Shown: positions 11,940 to 20,848, numbered from the stretch's first letter. The stretch is DNA of 64,000 bases from an uncultured Clostridia bacterium (GCA_944387405.1 CALXET010000005.1:30823-94822); one strand, 5' to 3'. Made by a program: numbers and translations. The notes: generated from the letters alone by a model not told the origin.

Positions 11940-12018
11940 AATTGAATTGAGATTTTTTAATATAAAAAGAGACGATTAAATGAAAATTTATATCGTCTCT
12001 TAATATTTAAAAAATTTA

Positions 12019-13104
12019 TTAATATTTAAGTTTGATTTCTTCTATTTTGTCATATTCATTTTCTAGAATATCCATGAATACAGGAACTAGTTTTGGATCT
12101 AACTGAGATCCTGCACAGTTTTTAATTTCTTCTTTAACATAATCAAGAGGAAGAGCTTCACGGTATGAACGTCTAGATGTCATAGCATCAAATGTGTCAG
12201 CTATAGAAGTTATTCTAGCTAGATAAGGAATTTCTTCGCCCATTAAATTATTAGGATATCCTTTGCCATCATATCTTTCATGATGGTGTTTTACGATTGG
12301 AATTATATCTTTAAAAATAGAAGCATTTGATAATATGTGTGCACCAATAGATGGATGATTTTTAATTTCTGAATATTCATCAGGTGTTAATTTATCATTT
12401 TTTAATAGTATTGCATCTGGAATTCCAATTTTACCAATATCATGAAATAAACCACCTATTTTTAATTTCTTTAGTTCATCATCACTTAATCCAATTTTTT
12501 TACCAATTAGTGTTGCATATTCAGAAACTCTATCAGAATGACCTCGAGTATATACATCTTTAGCTTCAACTGTATACCTTAATGTTTCTATTGTTTCAAG
12601 ATAAGCCTTTTCAAGAAGTTCCTTTGATTGTTCTAAATCAGAATTGATAGATTTAATTAGTCTCATTTGATCAACTGATTTTAAACCAGACTCGATAAGT
12701 AGTAATAACTGATCAAATTTATCACTTTTTTCGCAATAACCTTGAATATCTAACTTTTTAATTGTATCTAAAGGAGGGGCTAAATCTTTATGCCCAGTAA
12801 GCAATAATATATATAATTCTTGATCAAATTTTCTTATTTCTTCAACGACCTTATCTCCATGAATTGGAGTCATTATATAATCTAAAATCATAAGATCAAA
12901 ATGTTCAGTTTTTACTCTTTCTATAGCTTCTAAAGGATTAGTTACGCCTGTTAATTGATAACCAGATCTACTTAAATATACTGAAAGAGAATCTATTATT
13001 CCCATTTCATCATCAACGGCAATAATCTTATAATCTTTATTATGATTATCAGATTCATTTAAATTAGAATTTATATTTAATCTCATAAAAATATTACCTT
13101 TCAA
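12019..13104 (-). CDS. Response regulator with HD-GYP cyclic dinucleotide phosphodiesterase domain
   Basis: REC (IAVDDE, ILDYIM), GHSDRV, FHDIGKIG, HHERYDGKGYP; likely start ATG 13086. Confidence 0.92.
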   Translation of the reverse strand: MKGNIFMRLNINSNLNESDNHNKDYKIIAVDDEMGIIDSLSVYLSRSGYQLTGVTNPLEAIERVKTEHFDLMILDYIMTPIHGDKVVEEIRKFDQELYILLLTGHKDLAPPLDTIKKLDIQGYCEKSDKFDQLLLLIESGLKSVDQMRLIKSINSDLEQSKELLEKAYLETIETLRYTVEAKDVYTRGHSDRVSEYATLIGKKIGLSDDELKKLKIGGLFHDIGKIGIPDAILLKNDKLTPDEYSEIKNHPSIGAHILSNASIFKDIIPIVKHHHERYDGKGYPNNLMGEEIPYLARITSIADTFDAMTSRRSYREALPLDYVKEEIKNCAGSQLDPKLVPVFMDILENEYDKIEEIKLKY

Positions 13105-13136
13105 TTAAATATTATATTTATATAAAAACATATAAT

Positions 13137-15182
13137 TTATTTTTTGTAAATAGGAAGTGAAATATAAAATGTGGTTCCATTTTCTGAAGTATCAAAAGTT
13201 ATTTCACCATGAAAATGTGCTTTAATATTAGAATATGACATAAATAAACCAAGTCCTGTACCTTCTTTTCCTTTTGTAGTAATCATTTCTTTAAATAATC
13301 TTTCTTGTACATTTGGTGGTATTCCAGGTCCAAAATCTTGTACACTTATAATTATACGATTATCATTAACTTTAGCTGATAAATTGATAGTCATTTCTTT
13401 ATCTTTATTATTGTAAGCTTGTATAGAATTTGAAATCATGTTATTTAATATTTGAACTAGACTATTGATATTTCCATGTATTAAATCATTATCAGTTGTT
13501 TCATTCTTAATAACTAAAGTAGTTATTGAATTTTTTAATTCATGTTTCATTAATATGTCTACACGATTAAATAACTCAGAAATTGTAAATGGATAAATTT
13601 GATCTTCGGAAAATACAACAGCTTGTCCCTTAACTGCTGTAATAACATCAGACATATATGAAGTGTGTGATCTTATTTTATCTAGCCAAGTGTTTATATC
13701 TTTAACAATTGCATGATAATCATCTTCATTTACCTGAGGATTACCTATAGACATATCAAGTTCTTTTGCTAAATCTGATAGACCTTCTGCAGCACCAGAA
13801 ATAGACATTATAGGAGTTTTTAAGTTATGGGCTATACCTCCAATCATTTGTCCTAATGAAGCTAAACGTTCTCTTTCTATTAATAAATCTTGAGAACTTT
13901 TAATTTTTTGTAAATTTTCTTGATTCATAATTTGAATATTATTATACGCTGTACAAAGATCTCCTAATTCGTCATTTGATATAACAGGTAGAGTAGTGAA
14001 ATTGTCTACATCTTTGTTGTCAGATATATGACTTAAACTTTCAGATATTGTAGAAACTTCTCTTGATAATGAACGAACAAAAATAATCAAAAGAATAAGC
14101 ATTAAGACAAATGTTATAATAAATGTTACTATTATATATGTTAGAGCTTCACTGGAGTCTGTATGATAAAGTATACAAGCATAATATGAGCCATCTTTTG
14201 TATTTAATTTAATAGTTGCTCCTTGCGTGTCTACAGCATAACTATCATAAGTTTTTCCATTATTTTGTTCTGCATATTTTAGAGTATACTTTATGACAAA
14301 ATTAGAAGGAGCAGGCCCTGATAATAAGTCTACATCTCCGTTTTCAGATAAAATAAAAACAGAAGCTGACTCATTATATATTAAAAATTTATTTAATAAA
14401 TTTTTAATACGTGAATATGTGTACGTTTCGTTTTCGTCAAAAAGTATAGATAGATTTTTAGAATATACTTCAAATAATGCATCTTCTGATGATTTAATAG
14501 ACTTTGTATATCCAACAAGAGCGATTAGAAGCATACCAATAATACAAACAGGTATGACCTGCATTAAAATTTTTGTTCCAATATTTATTCTTACTCCAAT
14601 ATCTGCATCTTTTCTATAAATCTCTGATAATATTTTACTAAATAAGCTTTTTGTAAAAATATATGAAGTTACAGCAAGTAAAAAAGTAAATGCAACAATA
14701 AGAGTAGTTATTTTTAATATCATTGTCTTTTCGTGACTACCAGTAATCGATAATATTGTAAAACATATAATTGATGGAATTATTAATTCTACCAAAAATA
14801 TTATATAAGGTAAATTCAAGCATCTTTTTCTTATAATATCAATATTTTTTGAGTTATTGTATTTTAAATCATTTTTATTTTTATACCATTCATCAATTGG
14901 TTTAAAAACCTTTTTAATGACAAAGTATATCACAATTACAGCAATAATACCTATACAGGCAAACTGAGCAACATACGGAATTCCTGACATTTCAATATCA
15001 AAAGGAGTATTAATAGAATTAGGTGGGTAATTCAAAATTAATGGAAGTACTATTGATACTACGATTAAGATTATTGTTGAAAGTAAAGAAAAAATAAGAA
15101 ATAGTTTAGTACTAGGTAGATTAAAGAAGGTTATTTTTTCTGTACTATTATTTATTTGTTTTTTTGTATTCATAAATAACAC
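13137..15182 (-). CDS. Multi-TM sensor histidine kinase
   Basis: Several TM helices, HAMP-like NDELGDL, H-box IAHNLKTP, N-box NMISNS, DFGPGI, GTGLGL. Confidence 0.92.
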   Translation of the reverse strand: MLFMNTKKQINNSTEKITFFNLPSTKLFLIFSLLSTIILIVVSIVLPLILNYPPNSINTPFDIEMSGIPYVAQFACIGIIAVIVIYFVIKKVFKPIDEWYKNKNDLKYNNSKNIDIIRKRCLNLPYIIFLVELIIPSIICFTILSITGSHEKTMILKITTLIVAFTFLLAVTSYIFTKSLFSKILSEIYRKDADIGVRINIGTKILMQVIPVCIIGMLLIALVGYTKSIKSSEDALFEVYSKNLSILFDENETYTYSRIKNLLNKFLIYNESASVFILSENGDVDLLSGPAPSNFVIKYTLKYAEQNNGKTYDSYAVDTQGATIKLNTKDGSYYACILYHTDSSEALTYIIVTFIITFVLMLILLIIFVRSLSREVSTISESLSHISDNKDVDNFTTLPVISNDELGDLCTAYNNIQIMNQENLQKIKSSQDLLIERERLASLGQMIGGIAHNLKTPIMSISGAAEGLSDLAKELDMSIGNPQVNEDDYHAIVKDINTWLDKIRSHTSYMSDVITAVKGQAVVFSEDQIYPFTISELFNRVDILMKHELKNSITTLVIKNETTDNDLIHGNINSLVQILNNMISNSIQAYNNKDKEMTINLSAKVNDNRIIISVQDFGPGIPPNVQERLFKEMITTKGKEGTGLGLFMSYSNIKAHFHGEITFDTSENGTTFYISLPIYKK

Positions 15183-15193
15183 CTCGATTATTA

Positions 15194-18100
15194 TTATTTA
15201 TTATTTTTATCATTGTTATTTGCATTTATAAAACCAACGCTTATCATATAATTAAATATTTTATATAAATATTTATCATCTATTTTGCTCCATTTAAAAC
15301 CTAAATCTTTTAATATTTTTTGAGTAAAATCAGACTTAATATTTACAGTATAATTATATTTTAAAGATAAATTTGTTGTATCAATATCGTTAACTATTGC
15401 ATCAATTCCACTATTTAAAGAATTTGTATATTCTAATATTTTTTCTTTAAAACTATTGTCATCTAAAGGTTCAATTTGAATATTAAATTTTTCTAGTGCC
15501 TTTAATATATCTTTAACTAAAATCAAGTTGTGATTAAATAAATGGAATATTTTGTTGTCATATTGTTTAGTTCTAGCAAGACATACTATTGCAGATGCAC
15601 ATTCATCTACAGGAGTAAATTCAATTTGTTGATTAAGCATAGCTTGTGTTATTATTTTTAAATTTACTAGAGATTTTATTCTGCTATAAAATGCATTTGC
15701 ATTTATATTTTTTTGGAAAAAGCCATCTGAATATCTACCAGATATTATACCAATACGTAATACTTTTCCTTTTAACCCTTTTTTCATTGCAGAAAAGACA
15801 ACATTTTCTGCTTCTAGTTTGCTGTTTACGTATACATTTTCTGTGTAATGCTGACCTATATAAAAATTATTTTCAGAAAAATCAACATTATGATTGTCAT
15901 GTTTTAACAAATAATGTCCTGAAATGCTAATTGATGATAAATGTATAAACCTAAAATTATTTAATAAAGCAAATCTAGTTATATTTTTTGTACCAATTAT
16001 ATTTATATCTTTAAATTTATCAAAACTACCATAATGTTTAACAATAGCAGCTGTATGTATAATGGTAGATACATTATTTTTTATTATATTATAATTTTCT
16101 TCTGTTAAATTTAAATTTTCAGTAGTAATATCACCATTAATGACAAAAATTCTTTTATTAATGTATGGATTTATTGAGCTATTAAAATAATACTTATAAG
16201 ATTCAGATAATCTTTTTAAAGATGCTGCATCATCCACACCGCGTACTAAGCAATATATATTTACTTTAGTAGTATCTAATAATTCTTTTAATACATGAAT
16301 ACCTATAAATCCATTAGCACCAGTTAAAAATACATTTCCCATCTCTGAATCATCATTAATCTTAACAGCATGTTCGTCACTAGAGTGCAATAAAGAAGGA
16401 TCTAAAGTAAATGCAACTTCATCATGTACAGATTCAGAATTATCTATAAATTCAGCTAATTTTTTAATAGTAGAATACTTATAAAAAGTTTGTGTAGTTA
16501 AATTTAATTTGTATTTTAAAAGCATTGATTGTAATTGAACAATACTTAGTGAATCTAATCCAAGAGATATAAAAGGAGTATTTATATCAACATGATTAGT
16601 ACCATTATTTAATAATTTTAAGATATTCTTTTCTAATAATTTTTCTGTTTCAGTAGTTGCTTTTTCAAGTACAATATCTGTATTAATATTAGGCTTTGGA
16701 AGTCTTTTTCTATCTATTTTTCCATTTGGTGTAAGGGGTAATGAGTCAAGCTTTATAAAATATGCAGGAATCATATAGTTTGGTAATTCTTCTAATAGAT
16801 AAGATATTAAGTCAGAAATAATAATATCTTTTTTTGAAGAATAGTAACATATTAAAAACTTTGATTCATAAGGTACGATTACTGTTTCTTTTATATTATT
16901 ATAAGACAAAATTCTATTCTCAATTTCTCCAAGCTCAATTCTATATCCTCTTATTTTTACTTGAAAATCTGCTCTTCCTAGATGAATTAGGTCTCCATTT
17001 GGAAGTTGTTTTACTAAATCATTAGTGTTATATATAAATTCTTTAGTGTTATATGGGTTTTTAATAAATAATTTCTCATTTAAATCATTTCTTTTATGGT
17101 ACCCAGCACAAACGCCATCTCCACCAATATATAATATTCCTGGAGTTTCTGGTGGTAGTAATTTTAAATTTTTTTCATCTAATACATAGACAGTAGTATT
17201 AGAGATAGGAGTCCCAATTGTTATAGTACGTGATTTAGTTACATCTTTTATAGTAGACCAGACTGCTGTTTCAGTAGGTCCATACATATTATATATGTTA
17301 ATATTTTTTGATAAAGATCTTAAGTGTTCTAAAAGTGGTTGAGGTAAAGGTTCTCCTCCAACTAAAACATCTGTTAAATTTCCAAAATATCTACAATATT
17401 CGTAATTATTAGTTAATAAGTTCATTCTAGAAGGTGTAGTTTGAATTATATTTACATTATATTTTAAACATAAAGAATTAAGTAATTTAATATCATTTTG
17501 CTCTTTTTCAGTAGCTAAAACAATAGTAAGACCTTTTTGAAGTGGTAAATAGCTTTCAAGTACAAATATATCAAAACATATTGTAGTTACTGATACAATT
17601 ACTTTTTTATTTGAAAAATTAATTTTTTCAGTTGTCCCTAAAATGAAATTATTAATGTTTATGTGTTTTAATTTAACACCTTTTGGCCTTCCTGTTGAAC
17701 CAGAAGTATAAATTATATATGCTAAATCTGAAGATAAATTAATATGTGAAGGGTTTTCTGTAGATCCTATATAAATATTATTATCAGATTCTAAAGCAAT
17801 ATTTATTTTTTCAACTGTTTCAGGAAGCATATTAAATAAATTAGTTTTAGAAAGTACGATTTTTGTTTCACTATTTTCTAACATATAAGAAATTCTTTCC
17901 ATAGGGTATTCAGGATCAATTGGAAGATATGCGGCACCTGATTTTAATATTCCAAGTAATCCAATAAACATTTCGATTGACCTATTTATAAGTAATCCTA
18001 CAAAAGTATTTCTTTCTACGCCTTTATTCCTTAAAAAGTTTGCTACTTGATTTGCTTTTTCATTTAAATTTTTATATGTGATTTTTTTATCTTCGCAAAT

Positions 18101-19555
18101 TACTGCAATTTTATTTGGTGTTTTTGCAGCTTGTTTTTCTATAATACTATGTATTGTCTGCGTTTTATCATATCTTTTTAAAGTGTTATTGAAGTCATGT
18201 AATAATATGTTTTTCTCTTTTTCTGTTACTACTTCAATGTCTGAAAGTTTTTTATCAGCGCCTTCAGACAATATCTGCTCTATAATATATTTAATCCTTT
18301 TAAGTATTTTTGAAATATAAGTATCTGTATATTTAGAAATTTTATAATCATAAGATATAGACATTTTTCCTATATCAGAAACATCATGTATATGAATTTG
18401 TATATCATTAAAAATTGCATCTGGTTCAATCCATGTTGCAGAATATTTTATTAAAGAAAATTTCTCTTGTGTTCTTGGTTTCTGATAAGAAAATAAAATA
18501 TTATACAAATTACTTGTAGATTCATTTTTTTTCTTTGCATCATTTAGAATATTATTATAAGGATATTTTTGATGTCTAAAGCAAGACATCATATCTAAAG
18601 AGATATCATTTACTAAATTTTTAAAAGTATATGAAGGTTTTATTTTAATAGTAAATGGAATTGTATCGATAAATAATCCAACTGTATTTTTTTCTAAAGC
18701 ATTAGATCTATTTAATACAGGTGTACCTACTACAAAATTATTTAAGTTATTAATTCTACTAAAATAAATCGCGTGTATAGCAAGGAGAAAATTATATATA
18801 CTTATTTTATTGCTTTTGCAAAAATCATTTATACTTTCCATGTCTTTTTTTGATAAAGTTAAAGTTTTTCTATTAGCTTTATAATCTAAATCATTTGAAG
18901 ATGAGAGATCACATGGAATACATGCTTGAGATTCAGTAGAATAATCATCCCAATATTTTTTATCCTTAATAAATTTATTGCTTTGTTTATATTCTTTTGA
19001 AGAATTTATAAAATCAACATAAGAATAATTATTGTATTCTGGAATAGAATCTGTAGAATCTGTCTTGTTAGATAAAAAAGCATAATAATTTAATATTCTA
19101 TCAATAATAAGTTGAATGCTCCAAGCATCAGATATTAGGTGATGGGCAACGAAAATAAATCCTCCAGTTTTATCTGACAAAACAAATGGAATAAATCTAA
19201 ATAATAATGAATCATATGCGAAAATAGGTTGATTTGCTATTTCTTTGGCATATGCATTAACGTCGGTTATATTATTAAAATTAAGAAGTGAAAAATCAAT
19301 TTTTGAATAATCAGATATGTATTGATAAGGAATATTTGAATTACTAATTCCTATTTTTATTCTAAAACTATCAGTATTTTTAATAAAAAGATTTATAGAA
19401 TTAAATAATATCTCTTTATTTATTTGTTCTTTTATAATAAAAACTCCAGCAAGATTATTAATAGGTGTATTTTTATAAAATTGTTCAATTGAAAAAATTG
19501 ATTCTTGCTGTCCTGTTAATTCAAACTTTTTCATAACATCTTTCCTCATATACAA
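15194..19555 (-). CDS. Single-module NRPS, C-A-T-R (terminal thioester reductase)
   Basis: C: HHLISDA; A: YTSGSTGRPKG, YGPTE, QVKIRGYRIELGEIE, PLTPNGKIDR; T: LGLDSL; R: TGANGFIG and YVNSK. Confidence 0.93.
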   Translation of the reverse strand: MYMRKDVMKKFELTGQQESIFSIEQFYKNTPINNLAGVFIIKEQINKEILFNSINLFIKNTDSFRIKIGISNSNIPYQYISDYSKIDFSLLNFNNITDVNAYAKEIANQPIFAYDSLLFRFIPFVLSDKTGGFIFVAHHLISDAWSIQLIIDRILNYYAFLSNKTDSTDSIPEYNNYSYVDFINSSKEYKQSNKFIKDKKYWDDYSTESQACIPCDLSSSNDLDYKANRKTLTLSKKDMESINDFCKSNKISIYNFLLAIHAIYFSRINNLNNFVVGTPVLNRSNALEKNTVGLFIDTIPFTIKIKPSYTFKNLVNDISLDMMSCFRHQKYPYNNILNDAKKKNESTSNLYNILFSYQKPRTQEKFSLIKYSATWIEPDAIFNDIQIHIHDVSDIGKMSISYDYKISKYTDTYISKILKRIKYIIEQILSEGADKKLSDIEVVTEKEKNILLHDFNNTLKRYDKTQTIHSIIEKQAAKTPNKIAVICEDKKITYKNLNEKANQVANFLRNKGVERNTFVGLLINRSIEMFIGLLGILKSGAAYLPIDPEYPMERISYMLENSETKIVLSKTNLFNMLPETVEKINIALESDNNIYIGSTENPSHINLSSDLAYIIYTSGSTGRPKGVKLKHININNFILGTTEKINFSNKKVIVSVTTICFDIFVLESYLPLQKGLTIVLATEKEQNDIKLLNSLCLKYNVNIIQTTPSRMNLLTNNYEYCRYFGNLTDVLVGGEPLPQPLLEHLRSLSKNINIYNMYGPTETAVWSTIKDVTKSRTITIGTPISNTTVYVLDEKNLKLLPPETPGILYIGGDGVCAGYHKRNDLNEKLFIKNPYNTKEFIYNTNDLVKQLPNGDLIHLGRADFQVKIRGYRIELGEIENRILSYNNIKETVIVPYESKFLICYYSSKKDIIISDLISYLLEELPNYMIPAYFIKLDSLPLTPNGKIDRKRLPKPNINTDIVLEKATTETEKLLEKNILKLLNNGTNHVDINTPFISLGLDSLSIVQLQSMLLKYKLNLTTQTFYKYSTIKKLAEFIDNSESVHDEVAFTLDPSLLHSSDEHAVKINDDSEMGNVFLTGANGFIGIHVLKELLDTTKVNIYCLVRGVDDAASLKRLSESYKYYFNSSINPYINKRIFVINGDITTENLNLTEENYNIIKNNVSTIIHTAAIVKHYGSFDKFKDINIIGTKNITRFALLNNFRFIHLSSISISGHYLLKHDNHNVDFSENNFYIGQHYTENVYVNSKLEAENVVFSAMKKGLKGKVLRIGIISGRYSDGFFQKNINANAFYSRIKSLVNLKIITQAMLNQQIEFTPVDECASAIVCLARTKQYDNKIFHLFNHNLILVKDILKALEKFNIQIEPLDDNSFKEKILEYTNSLNSGIDAIVNDIDTTNLSLKYNYTVNIKSDFTQKILKDLGFKWSKIDDKYLYKIFNYMISVGFINANNNDKNNK

Positions 19556-19731
19556 TTTTCTTTAAAATTTAACACCATTATATAAAAAATATAAAAATAT
19601 GTCATCAATGAAACATAAAAAATAAGAAAAAGTAACTAAAAAGTAATATATAAAGAAGTTAAATATGAAAAAAAGTGTATAACTCATTGACAAAAAGGAA
19701 GAATACTATATATGTAGGAGAGATAATTTAT

Positions 19732-20848
19732 ATGTATGCAGAGAAAAAAGAAAGATTTAAAAATTTAGGAATACAGCTTTTAATAATAGTTTTAAGTTGC
19801 TTTTTTGGAATATTGGCATATATTATATATTTAGATAGTCAAATATATGTATATGAAAAAAGTGCGGTTGGATCAAAACTTTTAAGAGAAGCAGAAGTAA
19901 ATATAAACAATAATGAAATAAATTTAGAAAATATAACTAAGTGCGTAGTTGGGATATCAAAACTAGAAGATAATGGTACAAGTATTTTCCTAGAGAAAAG
20001 TACAGAAAAATTAGGACTGGGAACAGGTGTAATAGTTGGAGAAGATGGATATATACTTACAAATGAACATGTAGTTGGTGAGAAGTATAGTAGTTGTTAT
20101 GTGACGTTAGATACAGGAATTGAATATAAAGGTAGTGTAGTGTGGGCAGATAGTGAAATAGATTTAGCAATAGTAAAGATAGGAATCACAGGATTAGATA
20201 AAATAAACCTAGGTGATTCAAATAATATTAAGATTGGTGAAAGAGTTTTTGCAATAGGAAATCCTGTTGGCTTTGAATTTCAGAAGACAGTAACATCAGG
20301 AATTATAAGCGGAATAAATAGAACTATTAAAATAAAGAATGATGATGATACTTATTCGTATATGGAAAGTCTAATCCAAACTGATGCCACCATAAATGAG
20401 GGAAATAGTGGAGGCCCATTAGTAAATGAAAAAGGTGAGATTATTGGTATAACATCAGTTAAAGTTAATGATGCAGAAGGAATACGGATTTGCGATTCCA
20501 ATCAATGTAGTAAAACCAATTATAGAAAAATTTAAAAAAACAGGACGATTCGATGAAGCATACCTTGGAATATATGGATATGATAAAGAAGTAATTCCAT
20601 ATCTAAAAGATGCAATTGATTTTGAAAATGGTATATATATTGCAGAAATTAATAAATCTAGTAATCTTAAAAACTCAAACTTAAAATCTGGAGATATAAT
20701 TACGAAAATAGATGATAAAGATTTAACAAGAATGTCAGAGCTTAGAGAGTATATTTATGGGAAAAATCCTGGGGATATAGTAAGTCTTACAATTAAGAGA
20801 AATAAAAAAGAATTTATATTGAAAGTAAAACTTGGTAAAAAATTGTAA
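19732..20848 (+). pseudogene. htrA: HtrA/DegP serine protease split by a +1 frameshift at ~20485 between the protease and PDZ parts
   Basis: TNEHVV, DLAIVK, QTDATINEGNSGGP; conserved EGIGFAIP reads GAA GGA ATA c GGA TTT GCG ATT CCA with one extra C. Confidence 0.8.

Follow-up and report, generated by a model that had tools for sequence, protein, structure and literature searches.

The 64,000-nucleotide stretch of DNA considered here (CALXET010000005.1:30823-94822, from the assembly GCA_944387405.1 of an uncultured Clostridia bacterium), hereafter the window, carries on its minus strand a trio of genes that encode a non-ribosomal peptide synthetase (NRPS), a multi-spanning sensor histidine kinase and a response regulator composed of a receiver (REC) and an HD-GYP domain. 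The window has a GC content of about 25% and belongs to a genome (G000) of 1.66 Mb that comprises 19 contigs and is 98% complete. The genomes and loci compared with it carry G and L labels, respectively, and the families of its order are designated f1 to f5. A previous sequence-only reading of the trio had proposed that the product of the NRPS is sensed by the adjacent kinase and that turnover of cyclic di-GMP (c-di-GMP) is the output.

The NRPS gene (15194..19555, minus strand) has a longest open reading frame (ORF) of 1453 amino acids (aa) with a likely start at ATG 19534. It is followed by the histidine kinase gene (13137..15182, minus strand; longest ORF 681 aa), which probably starts at ATG 15173 behind the ribosome-binding site GAGGTG, and by the regulator gene (12019..13104, minus strand; longest ORF 361 aa) with a likely start at ATG 13086. 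The three co-oriented genes and the gaps of about 11 and 32 nt described earlier match the minus-strand ORFs exactly; the longest ORFs are spaced by 11 and 32 nt, and counted from the likely ATG codons the spacers measure about 20 and 50 nt. Reading of the junctions places a ribosome-binding site ahead of each of the likely starts 19534, 15173 and 13086.

Upstream of the NRPS gene lies a promoter-like site (19577..19605, minus strand) with the -35 element ATGACA, a 17-nt spacer and the -10 element TATAAT. It is the top-scoring match of the region (11/12), and it is to be regarded as a candidate, as promoter-consensus matches are not enriched in this AT-rich DNA (62 against a shuffle mean of 71.5). 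At the other end a terminator-like hairpin with a U-tract (11960..12000, minus strand) follows the regulator gene and is shared with the convergent Tex-like gene. The hairpin has a large loop and was missed by a simple scan for intrinsic terminators; it was found by eye and by folding (11968-12000; dG -17.1 kcal/mol, z -5.87), and none of 200 shuffled sequences folds as well. Neither spacer of the trio contains an intergenic terminator, and one terminator-like site is located inside the kinase gene at 14548-14562. With its promoter-like site, ribosome-binding sites, uninterrupted spacers and terminal hairpin the layout is operon-like. In three chicken-gut metatranscriptome libraries, all from a single study, short contigs match parts of all three genes at 95-100% identity; contigs from four runs were compared with the locus, and as they show neither strand nor expression level they say nothing about operon structure, nor do the parts left uncovered.

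Synthetase, sensor kinase and regulator

The NRPS comprises a single module in the order condensation (C), adenylation (A), thiolation (T) and reductase (R) domain. Its Pfam matches are Condensation at residues 10-451 (241 bits), AMP-binding at 473-820 followed by AMP-binding_C, PP-binding at 981-1037 and NAD_binding_4 at 1077-1323 (152.9 bits), and together with the NCBIfam matches they place the C domain at nt ~18203-19528, the A domain at ~16718-18139, the T domain at ~16445-16615 and the R domain at ~15227-16336, all on the minus strand. The catalytic motifs are recognisable as HHLISDA (C), GLDSL (T) and GANGFIG with YVNSK (R). Despite their divergence, the 35 single-module homologues all retain HHxxxD[AGS] in the C domain and both GxxGxxG and YxxxK in the R domain; the T motif is conserved likewise, but a simple pattern for it failed on 8 of the 35. 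The A domain scores 375 bits against TIGR01733, which is above the cut-off of 317, and the R domain 187 bits against TIGR01746, below its cut-off of 213. The nearest NCBIfam models for the whole protein are the C-A-T-R part of AusA (positions 993-2369; 645.6 bits) and full-length MxcG (469.3 bits). Since these scores fall far short of the respective cut-offs of 2500 and 2300 bits, the window NRPS is not an equivalog of either.

The sequence-only reading had considered the substrate of the A domain impossible to call from the segment CFDIFVLE. This segment is indeed found in the NRPS translation, and it can now be complemented by the full 10-residue code, DILQLGMVWK. Codes were read from an alignment anchored on the motifs of the window protein, with their positions following GrsA numbering. 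In a survey of 2051 A domains, DILQLGMIWK is a glycine-activating code and glycine codes vary at positions 299, 322 and 330 (L/M, L/M and I/V, respectively) (PMC12283262). As DILQLGMVWK fits this glycine code family, glycine is the predicted substrate. LgrA, which is the top PDB match of the A domain (597 bits), was considered as further support for glycine and discarded, its score being the sum of matches to two A domains (290 and 306 bits).

The C domain is the first domain of the protein and no carrier domain precedes it within the NRPS, so that the earlier designation as a starter C domain follows from its position and not from a sequence subtype. In dimodular relatives of the enzyme, described below, the first C domain carries HHxxxD[A/S] and the internal one HHxxxDG, with one HHxxxDG exception in a first C domain (n=23 with both motifs read). 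Neither a second NRPS nor a further adenylating enzyme matching this one nor a partner aryl or peptidyl carrier protein was found in the 98%-complete genome, which contains one free acyl carrier protein (ACP) and one ketoacyl-ACP synthase (KAS). Given this inventory, the donor of the C domain would have to come from primary metabolism as an acyl-ACP or acyl-CoA.

The kinase falls into two halves. The sensor half (aa 1 to ~390; 14013..15182, minus strand) is hypervariable and consists of five transmembrane (TM) helices, a predicted Cache/PDC-like extracytoplasmic domain (aa ~231-342; nt ~14157-14492, minus strand), delimited by hydropathy and an AlphaFold2 model, and a sixth TM helix. The transmitter half (13137..14012, minus strand) is the conserved part and comprises a weak HAMP-like linker, HisKA and HATPase_c. 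The multi-TM kinase of the sequence-only reading is thus borne out by hydropathy, which shows six TM helices, a cytoplasmic N-terminus and an external loop of about 115 residues (231-342), and by Pfam matches to HisKA (443-476, 29.8 bits) and HATPase_c (571-678, 72.5 bits). The sensor half matches no Pfam family at E <=5 except for a weak HAMP match (368-415, E 0.016), and the leads from an Atlas feature search were all generic periplasmic sensors, with scores of at most 0.91.

An AlphaFold2 model of the sensor half that was built with 35 homologues (mean predicted local distance difference score, pLDDT, 85.1; predicted template modelling score, pTM, 0.79) consists of a helical bundle with an alpha/beta domain in the loop. 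When the model was searched against 48,161 solved chains with VIA-align, the loop (aa ~220-343) matched many Cache/PAS extracytoplasmic sensor domains at Z 8.5-5.8. The best match is 4exo (Z 8.5, root-mean-square deviation 3.8, 119 aligned residues), followed by 3cwf (Z 8.2), 9hvj (8.1), TlpB 3ub6 (7.5) and WalK 4ywz (7.1), with CitA (6.0) and DctB (5.8) being weaker. The outer loop therefore models as an outward-facing, Cache-like ligand-binding fold, an assignment made because the matches agree with one another, with Z values that themselves lie near background. The TM bundle gives only generic helical matches and corresponds to no transporter family in Pfam (E <=5) or VIA-align.

The regulator comprises a Response_reg domain at residues 27-136 (59.4 bits; REC, nt ~12697-13026, minus strand) and an HD_5 domain at 178-339 (123.5 bits; HD-GYP, nt ~12088-12573, minus strand). 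The pocket of the REC domain is complete in the translation (D31, D32, the acceptor D75, T103 and K126), and the HD-GYP domain contains the motifs HDIGK and HHERYDGKGYP. The protein scores 201.6 bits against the NosR-family model of NCBIfam, under the cut-off of 400. Among solved structures it is closest to V-cGAP3, a 3'3'-cGAMP phosphodiesterase (5z7c, 149 bits), and to the c-di-GMP phosphodiesterase PmGH (4mcw, 130 bits). A second HD-GYP protein of about 320 aa, which stands alone, lacks a REC domain and has the motif HHEALNGTGYP, is encoded elsewhere in the genome (G000:C7:32363-33328) and is kept in most relatives.

Conservation and co-variation across related genomes

The trio was followed through 41 genomes of the same order, which represent five families. 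NRPS and kinase genes are adjacent on one contig in 33 of these, G019 holds the pair on two contig ends, and both genes are missing from the remaining seven (G003, G004, G007, G011, G012, G021 and G023). The REC-HD-GYP gene is located within 5 kb of the kinase gene in 26 of the 41. A second sample was seeded with the regulator protein and consisted of the best 80 of 467 relatives' loci, from metagenome-assembled genomes (MAGs) of the human, rabbit, mouse, chicken and roe deer gut. Among these 80, 73 have enough flanking DNA to be informative, and 71 of the 73 hold both kinase and NRPS genes; L077 has the NRPS with no kinase detected, and L081 has neither. Linkage of the trio is thus the rule rather than the exception, in keeping with the sequence-only reading, to which usually unlinked homologues would have been contrary. 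Because the same order recurs in most related genomes, the arrangement is far beyond chance.

The cassette also extends past the order. A profile search with the sensor half matched 12 of 399 scored genomes across the class, four of them outside the order, and all four encode a C-A-T-R NRPS, a kinase and a REC-HD-GYP regulator in the same order. These genomes (G078, G393, G346 and G134; loci L143-L146) fall into two families, measure 1.9-4.3 Mb, have 40-44% GC and encode a longer regulator of 502-513 aa. One of them is a single 4.3-Mb contig and may represent a cultured organism.

In a sister cassette (L054, L057, L064, L066, L072-L076 and others) the NRPS is dimodular (C-A-T-C-A-T-R, about 2470 aa), the kinase is a HisKA_7TM+PAS protein of 600 aa and the REC-HD-GYP regulator is the same; a few of these loci have the NRPS-kinase pair turned around with respect to the regulator. 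The sensor class of the window occurs with 35 of 35 complete single-module NRPSs and with none of 24 dimodular ones, which use the HisKA_7TM+PAS kinase. Local variants of the cassette were also observed. In L038 (G032) a stand-alone AMP-binding gene (L038:4076-5677, 533 aa) lies directly downstream of a C-A-R NRPS gene, with the kinase gene upstream of the NRPS and the regulator gene divergent. In L034, L035, L036 and L037, all from f4, a gene for an SMC_N/AAA-type ATPase of about 360 aa is located between the kinase and regulator genes, and in L037 a Bro-N domain gene lies there as well.

The cassettes differ widely in the predicted specificity of their A domains. Other codes include DFWN[IV]GMVHK, DVWHFSLVDK, DAIFGGLMFK, DIFLIGLVYK, DSELTAEVCK, DLTKIGEVGK, DVYYGGMVGK and DITQMGMVWK, among others, of which the first is the threonine code and the second serine-like. 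At least eight code types occur within one taxon group whose kinase cores and regulators are at least 80% identical. Within the glycine group the C domain and the sensor change fastest, as illustrated by the comparison of the window with G008 (identities of 47% for C, 57% for the sensor, 76% for A, 69% for R and 78% for the kinase core). This fast change would fit variation in the acyl group.

The neighbouring Tex protein served as a yardstick for species divergence, with identities of 76-91% within the genus and 52-68% across families. Measured against the window, identities within the genus are 81-97% for REC, 70-91% for HD-GYP and 64-89% for the kinase core, much as for Tex. All four NRPS domains and the kinase sensor, in contrast, drop to 26-46% in some comparisons within the genus, which is as low as between families. 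The pair G014 and G018 exemplifies this, as the kinase core is 91% identical in the two genomes and the sensor, C and R domains are only 30%, 32% and 36% identical, respectively. Sliding windows along this pair give 52-88% for the HtrA-like gene next to the cassette, 15-50% for the NRPS and 72-98% for the regulator; within the kinase the values are 10-45% for aa 1-385 and 80-100% from aa ~400 to the end. The breakpoint in identity is thus located inside the kinase gene, at aa ~385-400, just past the last TM helix. G013 combines a kinase core that is nearest to the window's group (76-78%) with a sensor that is 65% identical to that of the G018 group.

Pairwise identities among the 35 complete single-module cassettes (595 pairs, 9999 permutations) were compared by Mantel statistics. 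The sensor correlates with the C domain (r = 0.86) and the R domain (0.90) and only weakly with its own kinase core (0.29), whereas the core correlates with the regulator (0.89); the partial correlation of sensor and C domain given the core is 0.85, and p = 1e-4 in each of these five cases. The C domain and the core correlate at 0.24. The p-values overstate the number of events, because related sequences are not independent. Clustering gives the same picture, with an adjusted Rand index (ARI) of 0.97 for sensor against C domain and of 0.07 for sensor against core. Of the 85 pairs with cores at least 80% identical, 72 have sensors below 40% and C domains of 23-41%, and 13 have sensors of at least 40% and C domains of 60-91%; where the NRPS type changes, sensors fall to 17-30% identity even though the kinase cores are still 80% or more identical. 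No mismatch of NRPS type and sensor type was found among the 35 cassettes. The 24 complete dimodular cassettes behave similarly, with correlations of 0.69 for sensor and NRPS, 0.12 for sensor and core and 0.64 for core and regulator. Two observations are independent of these statistics, namely the sharp breakpoints within the kinase gene and the discordance in how the types are distributed. NRPS and kinase sensor form one hypervariable unit, and kinase core and regulator track species divergence.

The flanks of the trio consist of plus-strand housekeeping genes, namely ABC-F, TIM-barrel and Tex-like genes on one side and a gene for an HtrA-like protease on the other, and the earlier statement that no tailoring, transporter or resistance gene lies beside the trio still holds; no immunity gene was found beside it either. 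The HtrA-like serine protease (Trypsin_2 + PDZ; 19675..20848, plus strand) is the divergent neighbour of the NRPS gene. It recurs next to the cassette in f1 and f5, where it marks the conserved edge of the hypervariable block. It was considered as a functional partner of the trio and rejected, as it adjoins the cassette in f1 and f5 only; because it is not adjacent in f2, f4 or the families with larger genomes, its position probably reflects merely local gene order.

The HtrA-like gene consists of two frames that join at a CGG codon (~20484-20487) within ATA-CGG-A. Skipping of the C restores the conserved motif EGIGFAIP, and the gene encodes a single 390-aa protein when CGGN is read as glycine. 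Eight of 42 complete orthologues are broken, always at CGG and at differing codon positions. Among the NRPS, kinase and regulator genes that are split in relatives, six of seven break at CGG, where the +1 frame restores conserved motifs; the NRPS gene of the window is devoid of CGG codons. Throughout G000, where the codon has a frequency of 0.18 per 1000 codons, 38 of the 125 CGG triplets within long open frames soon run into a stop in frame 0 and have a +1 frame that stays open for at least 80 codons (controls 0-2.4%), and only 18 CGG triplets have the look of ordinary codons. In the loci of relatives (L016-L132; 2.06 Mb) 48 of 184 CGG triplets show this shift pattern and 34 resemble normal codons. 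The +1 codon at shift sites is GGN (glycine), the preceding codon varies and there is no slippery motif. A tRNA-Arg(CCG) was not found among the 32 tRNAs assembled, which are an incomplete set. The pattern looks like lineage-wide +1 decoding at a hungry codon, and it affects annotation in that many apparent pseudogenes, including split copies of the trio genes, are probably intact.

A candidate signal-receptor cassette

It is proposed, with a probability of roughly 0.55, that the trio is a signal-receptor cassette in which an N-acyl-glycine-derived aldehyde or alcohol made by the NRPS is read by a co-evolving sensor and converted into a nucleotide-messenger output. The cytoplasmic single-module NRPS is predicted to load glycine, which its N-terminal C domain would N-acylate from an acyl-ACP or acyl-CoA donor. 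The R domain would then release an N-acyl-glycinal or, after a second reduction, an alcohol of the N-acyl-ethanolamine type. Judging from the co-variation and from the predicted fold, this small lipophilic product may exit the cell and be recognised by the TM bundle and the Cache-like domain of the kinase, which in turn would phosphorylate the REC domain of the presumably co-transcribed regulator. The HD-GYP domain would then alter the level of a cyclic dinucleotide, be it c-di-GMP, 3'3'-cGAMP or a related nucleotide. Synthetase and sensor would be swapped and diverge together as specificity types, with transmitter and output remaining constant. Sensing of the NRPS product by the adjacent kinase, as the sequence-only reading had it, thus gains strong comparative support from synteny and co-variation, and the ligand-receptor relation itself is deduced from these. 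The agr/comQXP-like pattern of variation lends further support to a signal-receptor pair.

Several observations weigh against this proposal. The identity of the product, the ligand-receptor relation, phosphotransfer, the nucleotide substrate and any density dependence are functional claims and inferred throughout, and a classic autoinduction loop is not evident, because the regulator is not a transcription factor. On the side of synthesis, the C domain has only weak PDB matches of at most 73 bits, to both elongation and starter C domains, so that its sequence yields no subtype call, and the 98%-complete assembly contains only a phosphopantetheinyl transferase of AcpS size and none of Sfp size. 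There is no exporter gene in the cassette. The Cache match of the sensor is middling (Z ~8) and close to the background of the search tool. None of the metatranscriptome contigs spans the junction between two of the genes, and DNA may be present in RNA libraries. The trio is also not invariably complete: in f2 and f3 the NRPS-kinase pair is kept with the regulator located elsewhere, and the REC-HD-GYP gene occurs alone in L050 (G012), L051 (G011), L052 (G021) and L081. These orphan regulators occupy the same site, between the Tex and HtrA-like genes. Those of G011, G012 and G021 are 58-68% identical to the regulator of the window, against 76-82% for Tex, which suggests that orphans are under relaxed or changed constraint and in itself speaks for the proposal. 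Finally, the co-variation could partly reflect block replacement of adjoining DNA.

The nature of the messenger is a further point of doubt. G000 has no canonical GGDEF protein that could be found, as is true of f1 and f5 generally, and it contains neither an EAL nor a PilZ protein nor a c-di-GMP-II riboswitch that could be found; a negative search for the c-di-GMP-I riboswitch is uninformative, because the control genomes gave no match either. Because these components of c-di-GMP signalling were not found, and because the best solved relative of the HD-GYP domain acts on 3'3'-cGAMP, c-di-GMP as the output of the regulator is doubtful and amounts to a family-level guess. Turnover of c-di-GMP is thus weaker than the sequence-only reading had stated, and the messenger may be another cyclic dinucleotide. 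In f4 a canonical GGDEF occurs only in G035 (100.6 bits, 249-aa frame); otherwise canonical GGDEF proteins are confined to f2 and f3 (121-150 bits, with GGEEF in the one checked) and to a second copy in G029 (98.7 bits, 209-aa frame). The GGDEF-like genes of G000 are two, one for a degenerate GGDEF protein and one for a REC-GGDEF-like protein of about 320 aa with a GGDDF signature (G000:C4:56341-57333, outside the window; also L133-L141). The motif GHIGGDDF, and not GG[DE]EF, is invariant in all ten orthologues of the latter, which come from four families, and this protein is the only plausible cyclase in f1, f5 and most of f4. Its product may be the substrate of the HD-GYP regulator, and this messenger need not be c-di-GMP.

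A rather unlikely alternative is that the NRPS makes an outward-acting effector, for instance a protease-inhibiting N-acyl amino aldehyde directed against host or competitor proteases, and that the kinase monitors this compound, or damage resulting from it, in the producing cell, so as to adjust physiology or tolerance and not to count cells. Sensor and synthetase would be expected to co-vary here too. Relatives carry dimodular C-A-T-C-A-T-R versions of the cassette, a gene for an HtrA-like serine protease lies divergently beside it in f1 and f5, and R-terminated NRPSs of gut Clostridia, described by Guo and colleagues in 2017, reportedly give protease-inhibiting aldehydes. A lone N-acyl-glycine-derived aldehyde or alcohol is, however, a poor scaffold for a protease inhibitor, the output of the cassette is a second-messenger enzyme and neither a pump nor a detoxifying enzyme, and there is no immunity gene. 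The protease gene, moreover, is absent from the immediate neighbourhood of the cassette in f2, f4 and the larger-genome families.

The contiguity of the hypervariable block, with conserved sequence at both edges, raises the alternative that the kinase senses an unrelated, lineage-variable cue and that NRPS and sensor DNA were replaced jointly, as neighbours between conserved recombination flanks. The correlations overstate the number of independent events among kin, which also favours such hitch-hiking. It is nonetheless quite improbable, given that none of the 35 single-module cassettes is mismatched in type (ARI 0.97) and that sensor class and NRPS architecture match in 35 of 35 cases against 0 of 24. 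Pairing and gene order persist in distant families of 40-44% GC, and an unrelated sensor need not diverge to 17-30% identity exactly where the NRPS type changes and the cores remain at 80% or above. It is very unlikely that the membrane half of the kinase docks the NRPS or exports or processes its product, co-evolving by contact while the kinase reports flux, as the cassette's want of an exporter gene and the five TM helices ahead of the Cache-like domain, which also vary between types, might suggest, since the TM bundle matches no transporter family, the outward Cache-like domain is a typical ligand-binding module and a small N-acyl amino alcohol or aldehyde should pass membranes unaided.

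The signal-receptor reading can be extended, more tentatively and at somewhat less than even confidence, to the uncultured gut Clostridia lineage and some larger-genome Clostridia as a whole, which would communicate by NRPS-made N-acyl amino aldehydes or alcohols diversified into many mutually private pherotypes, each read by a co-evolving Cache kinase and turned by the REC-HD-GYP enzyme into a change in a cyclic-dinucleotide pool that the invariant GGDDF-type cyclase may feed and that may therefore not be c-di-GMP. In the literature searched no description was found of an NRPS-kinase-HD-GYP cassette, of NRPS pherotypes or of synthetase-sensor co-variation, and supplementary cluster maps might hold one. 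If the pherotype reading is true, this would be the first non-ribosomal pherotype system, and communication partners within a major gut lineage could be read from the sequences of the cassettes. It would also predict testable molecules, namely N-acyl-glycinal or -ethanolamide and the analogues derived from threonine and serine, and would open a way into a so far unexplored output of nucleotide signalling in organisms without the usual c-di-GMP components. Through the glycine types, bacteria would supply the gut with N-acyl-ethanolamine-like lipids, and such products would bear on host lipid signalling.

Relation to known synthetases and signalling systems

The window NRPS shares the C-A-T-R order and presumably reductive release with MxcG of myxochelin biosynthesis and with the second module of AusA, the aureusimine synthetase. 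It differs from both in its predicted substrate, glycine, and in the composition of its genome, where a partner carrier protein and a second NRPS were not found. A gut Clostridia NRPS family reported by Guo and colleagues in 2017 is said to make (N-acyl) dipeptide aldehydes and pyrazinones. Like the trio's enzyme it is R-ended and from gut Clostridia, and dimodular relatives occupy the same position in the cassette; the window enzyme differs in being single-module. In linear gramicidin biosynthesis the R domain of LgrD together with LgrE takes glycine to glycinal and on to ethanolamine, which sets a precedent for the stepwise reduction of T-bound glycine, by way of an aldehyde, to a terminal ethanolamine. 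This assembly line has 16 modules, unlike the enzyme of the trio, and comes without signalling genes.

The Rpf system of Xanthomonas, which responds to the diffusible signal factor (DSF), consists of the synthase RpfF, the sensor kinase RpfC and the REC-HD-GYP regulator RpfG. As in the trio, a synthase, a membrane sensor kinase and a REC-HD-GYP protein are encoded together, and the output is hydrolysis of a messenger and not DNA binding. The parallel drawn by the sequence-only reading holds in these respects, and it fails for the architecture of synthase and kinase. RpfF belongs to the enoyl-CoA-hydratase family with its crotonase fold, whereas the synthase of the trio is an NRPS. RpfC is a hybrid kinase with REC and HPt domains, whereas the kinase of the trio has only HisKA and HATPase_c behind six TM helices and a Cache-like loop. 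The organism of the trio also differs in that canonical GGDEF, EAL and PilZ proteins were not found in it.

The evolutionary pattern of the trio is the one known from the pherotype loci agrBDCA in staphylococci and comQXPA in Bacillus. In these systems, too, the signal genes and the sensor half of the kinase are hypervariable, the transmitter and regulator are conserved, several types exist among close relatives and the breakpoint is located inside the kinase. Their signal is a processed ribosomal peptide and that of the trio would be NRPS-made; their regulator is a LytTR or NarL-type transcription factor and that of the trio an HD-GYP enzyme. Known pherotype signal-receptor cassettes thus use ribosomal peptides and the known HD-GYP cassettes, Rpf, a fatty-acid signal of Proteobacteria, whereas in abundant, uncultured gut Clostridia an NRPS appears to act as the pheromone synthase. 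The trio combines the layout of Rpf with the evolutionary pattern of agr and com and is a member of neither.

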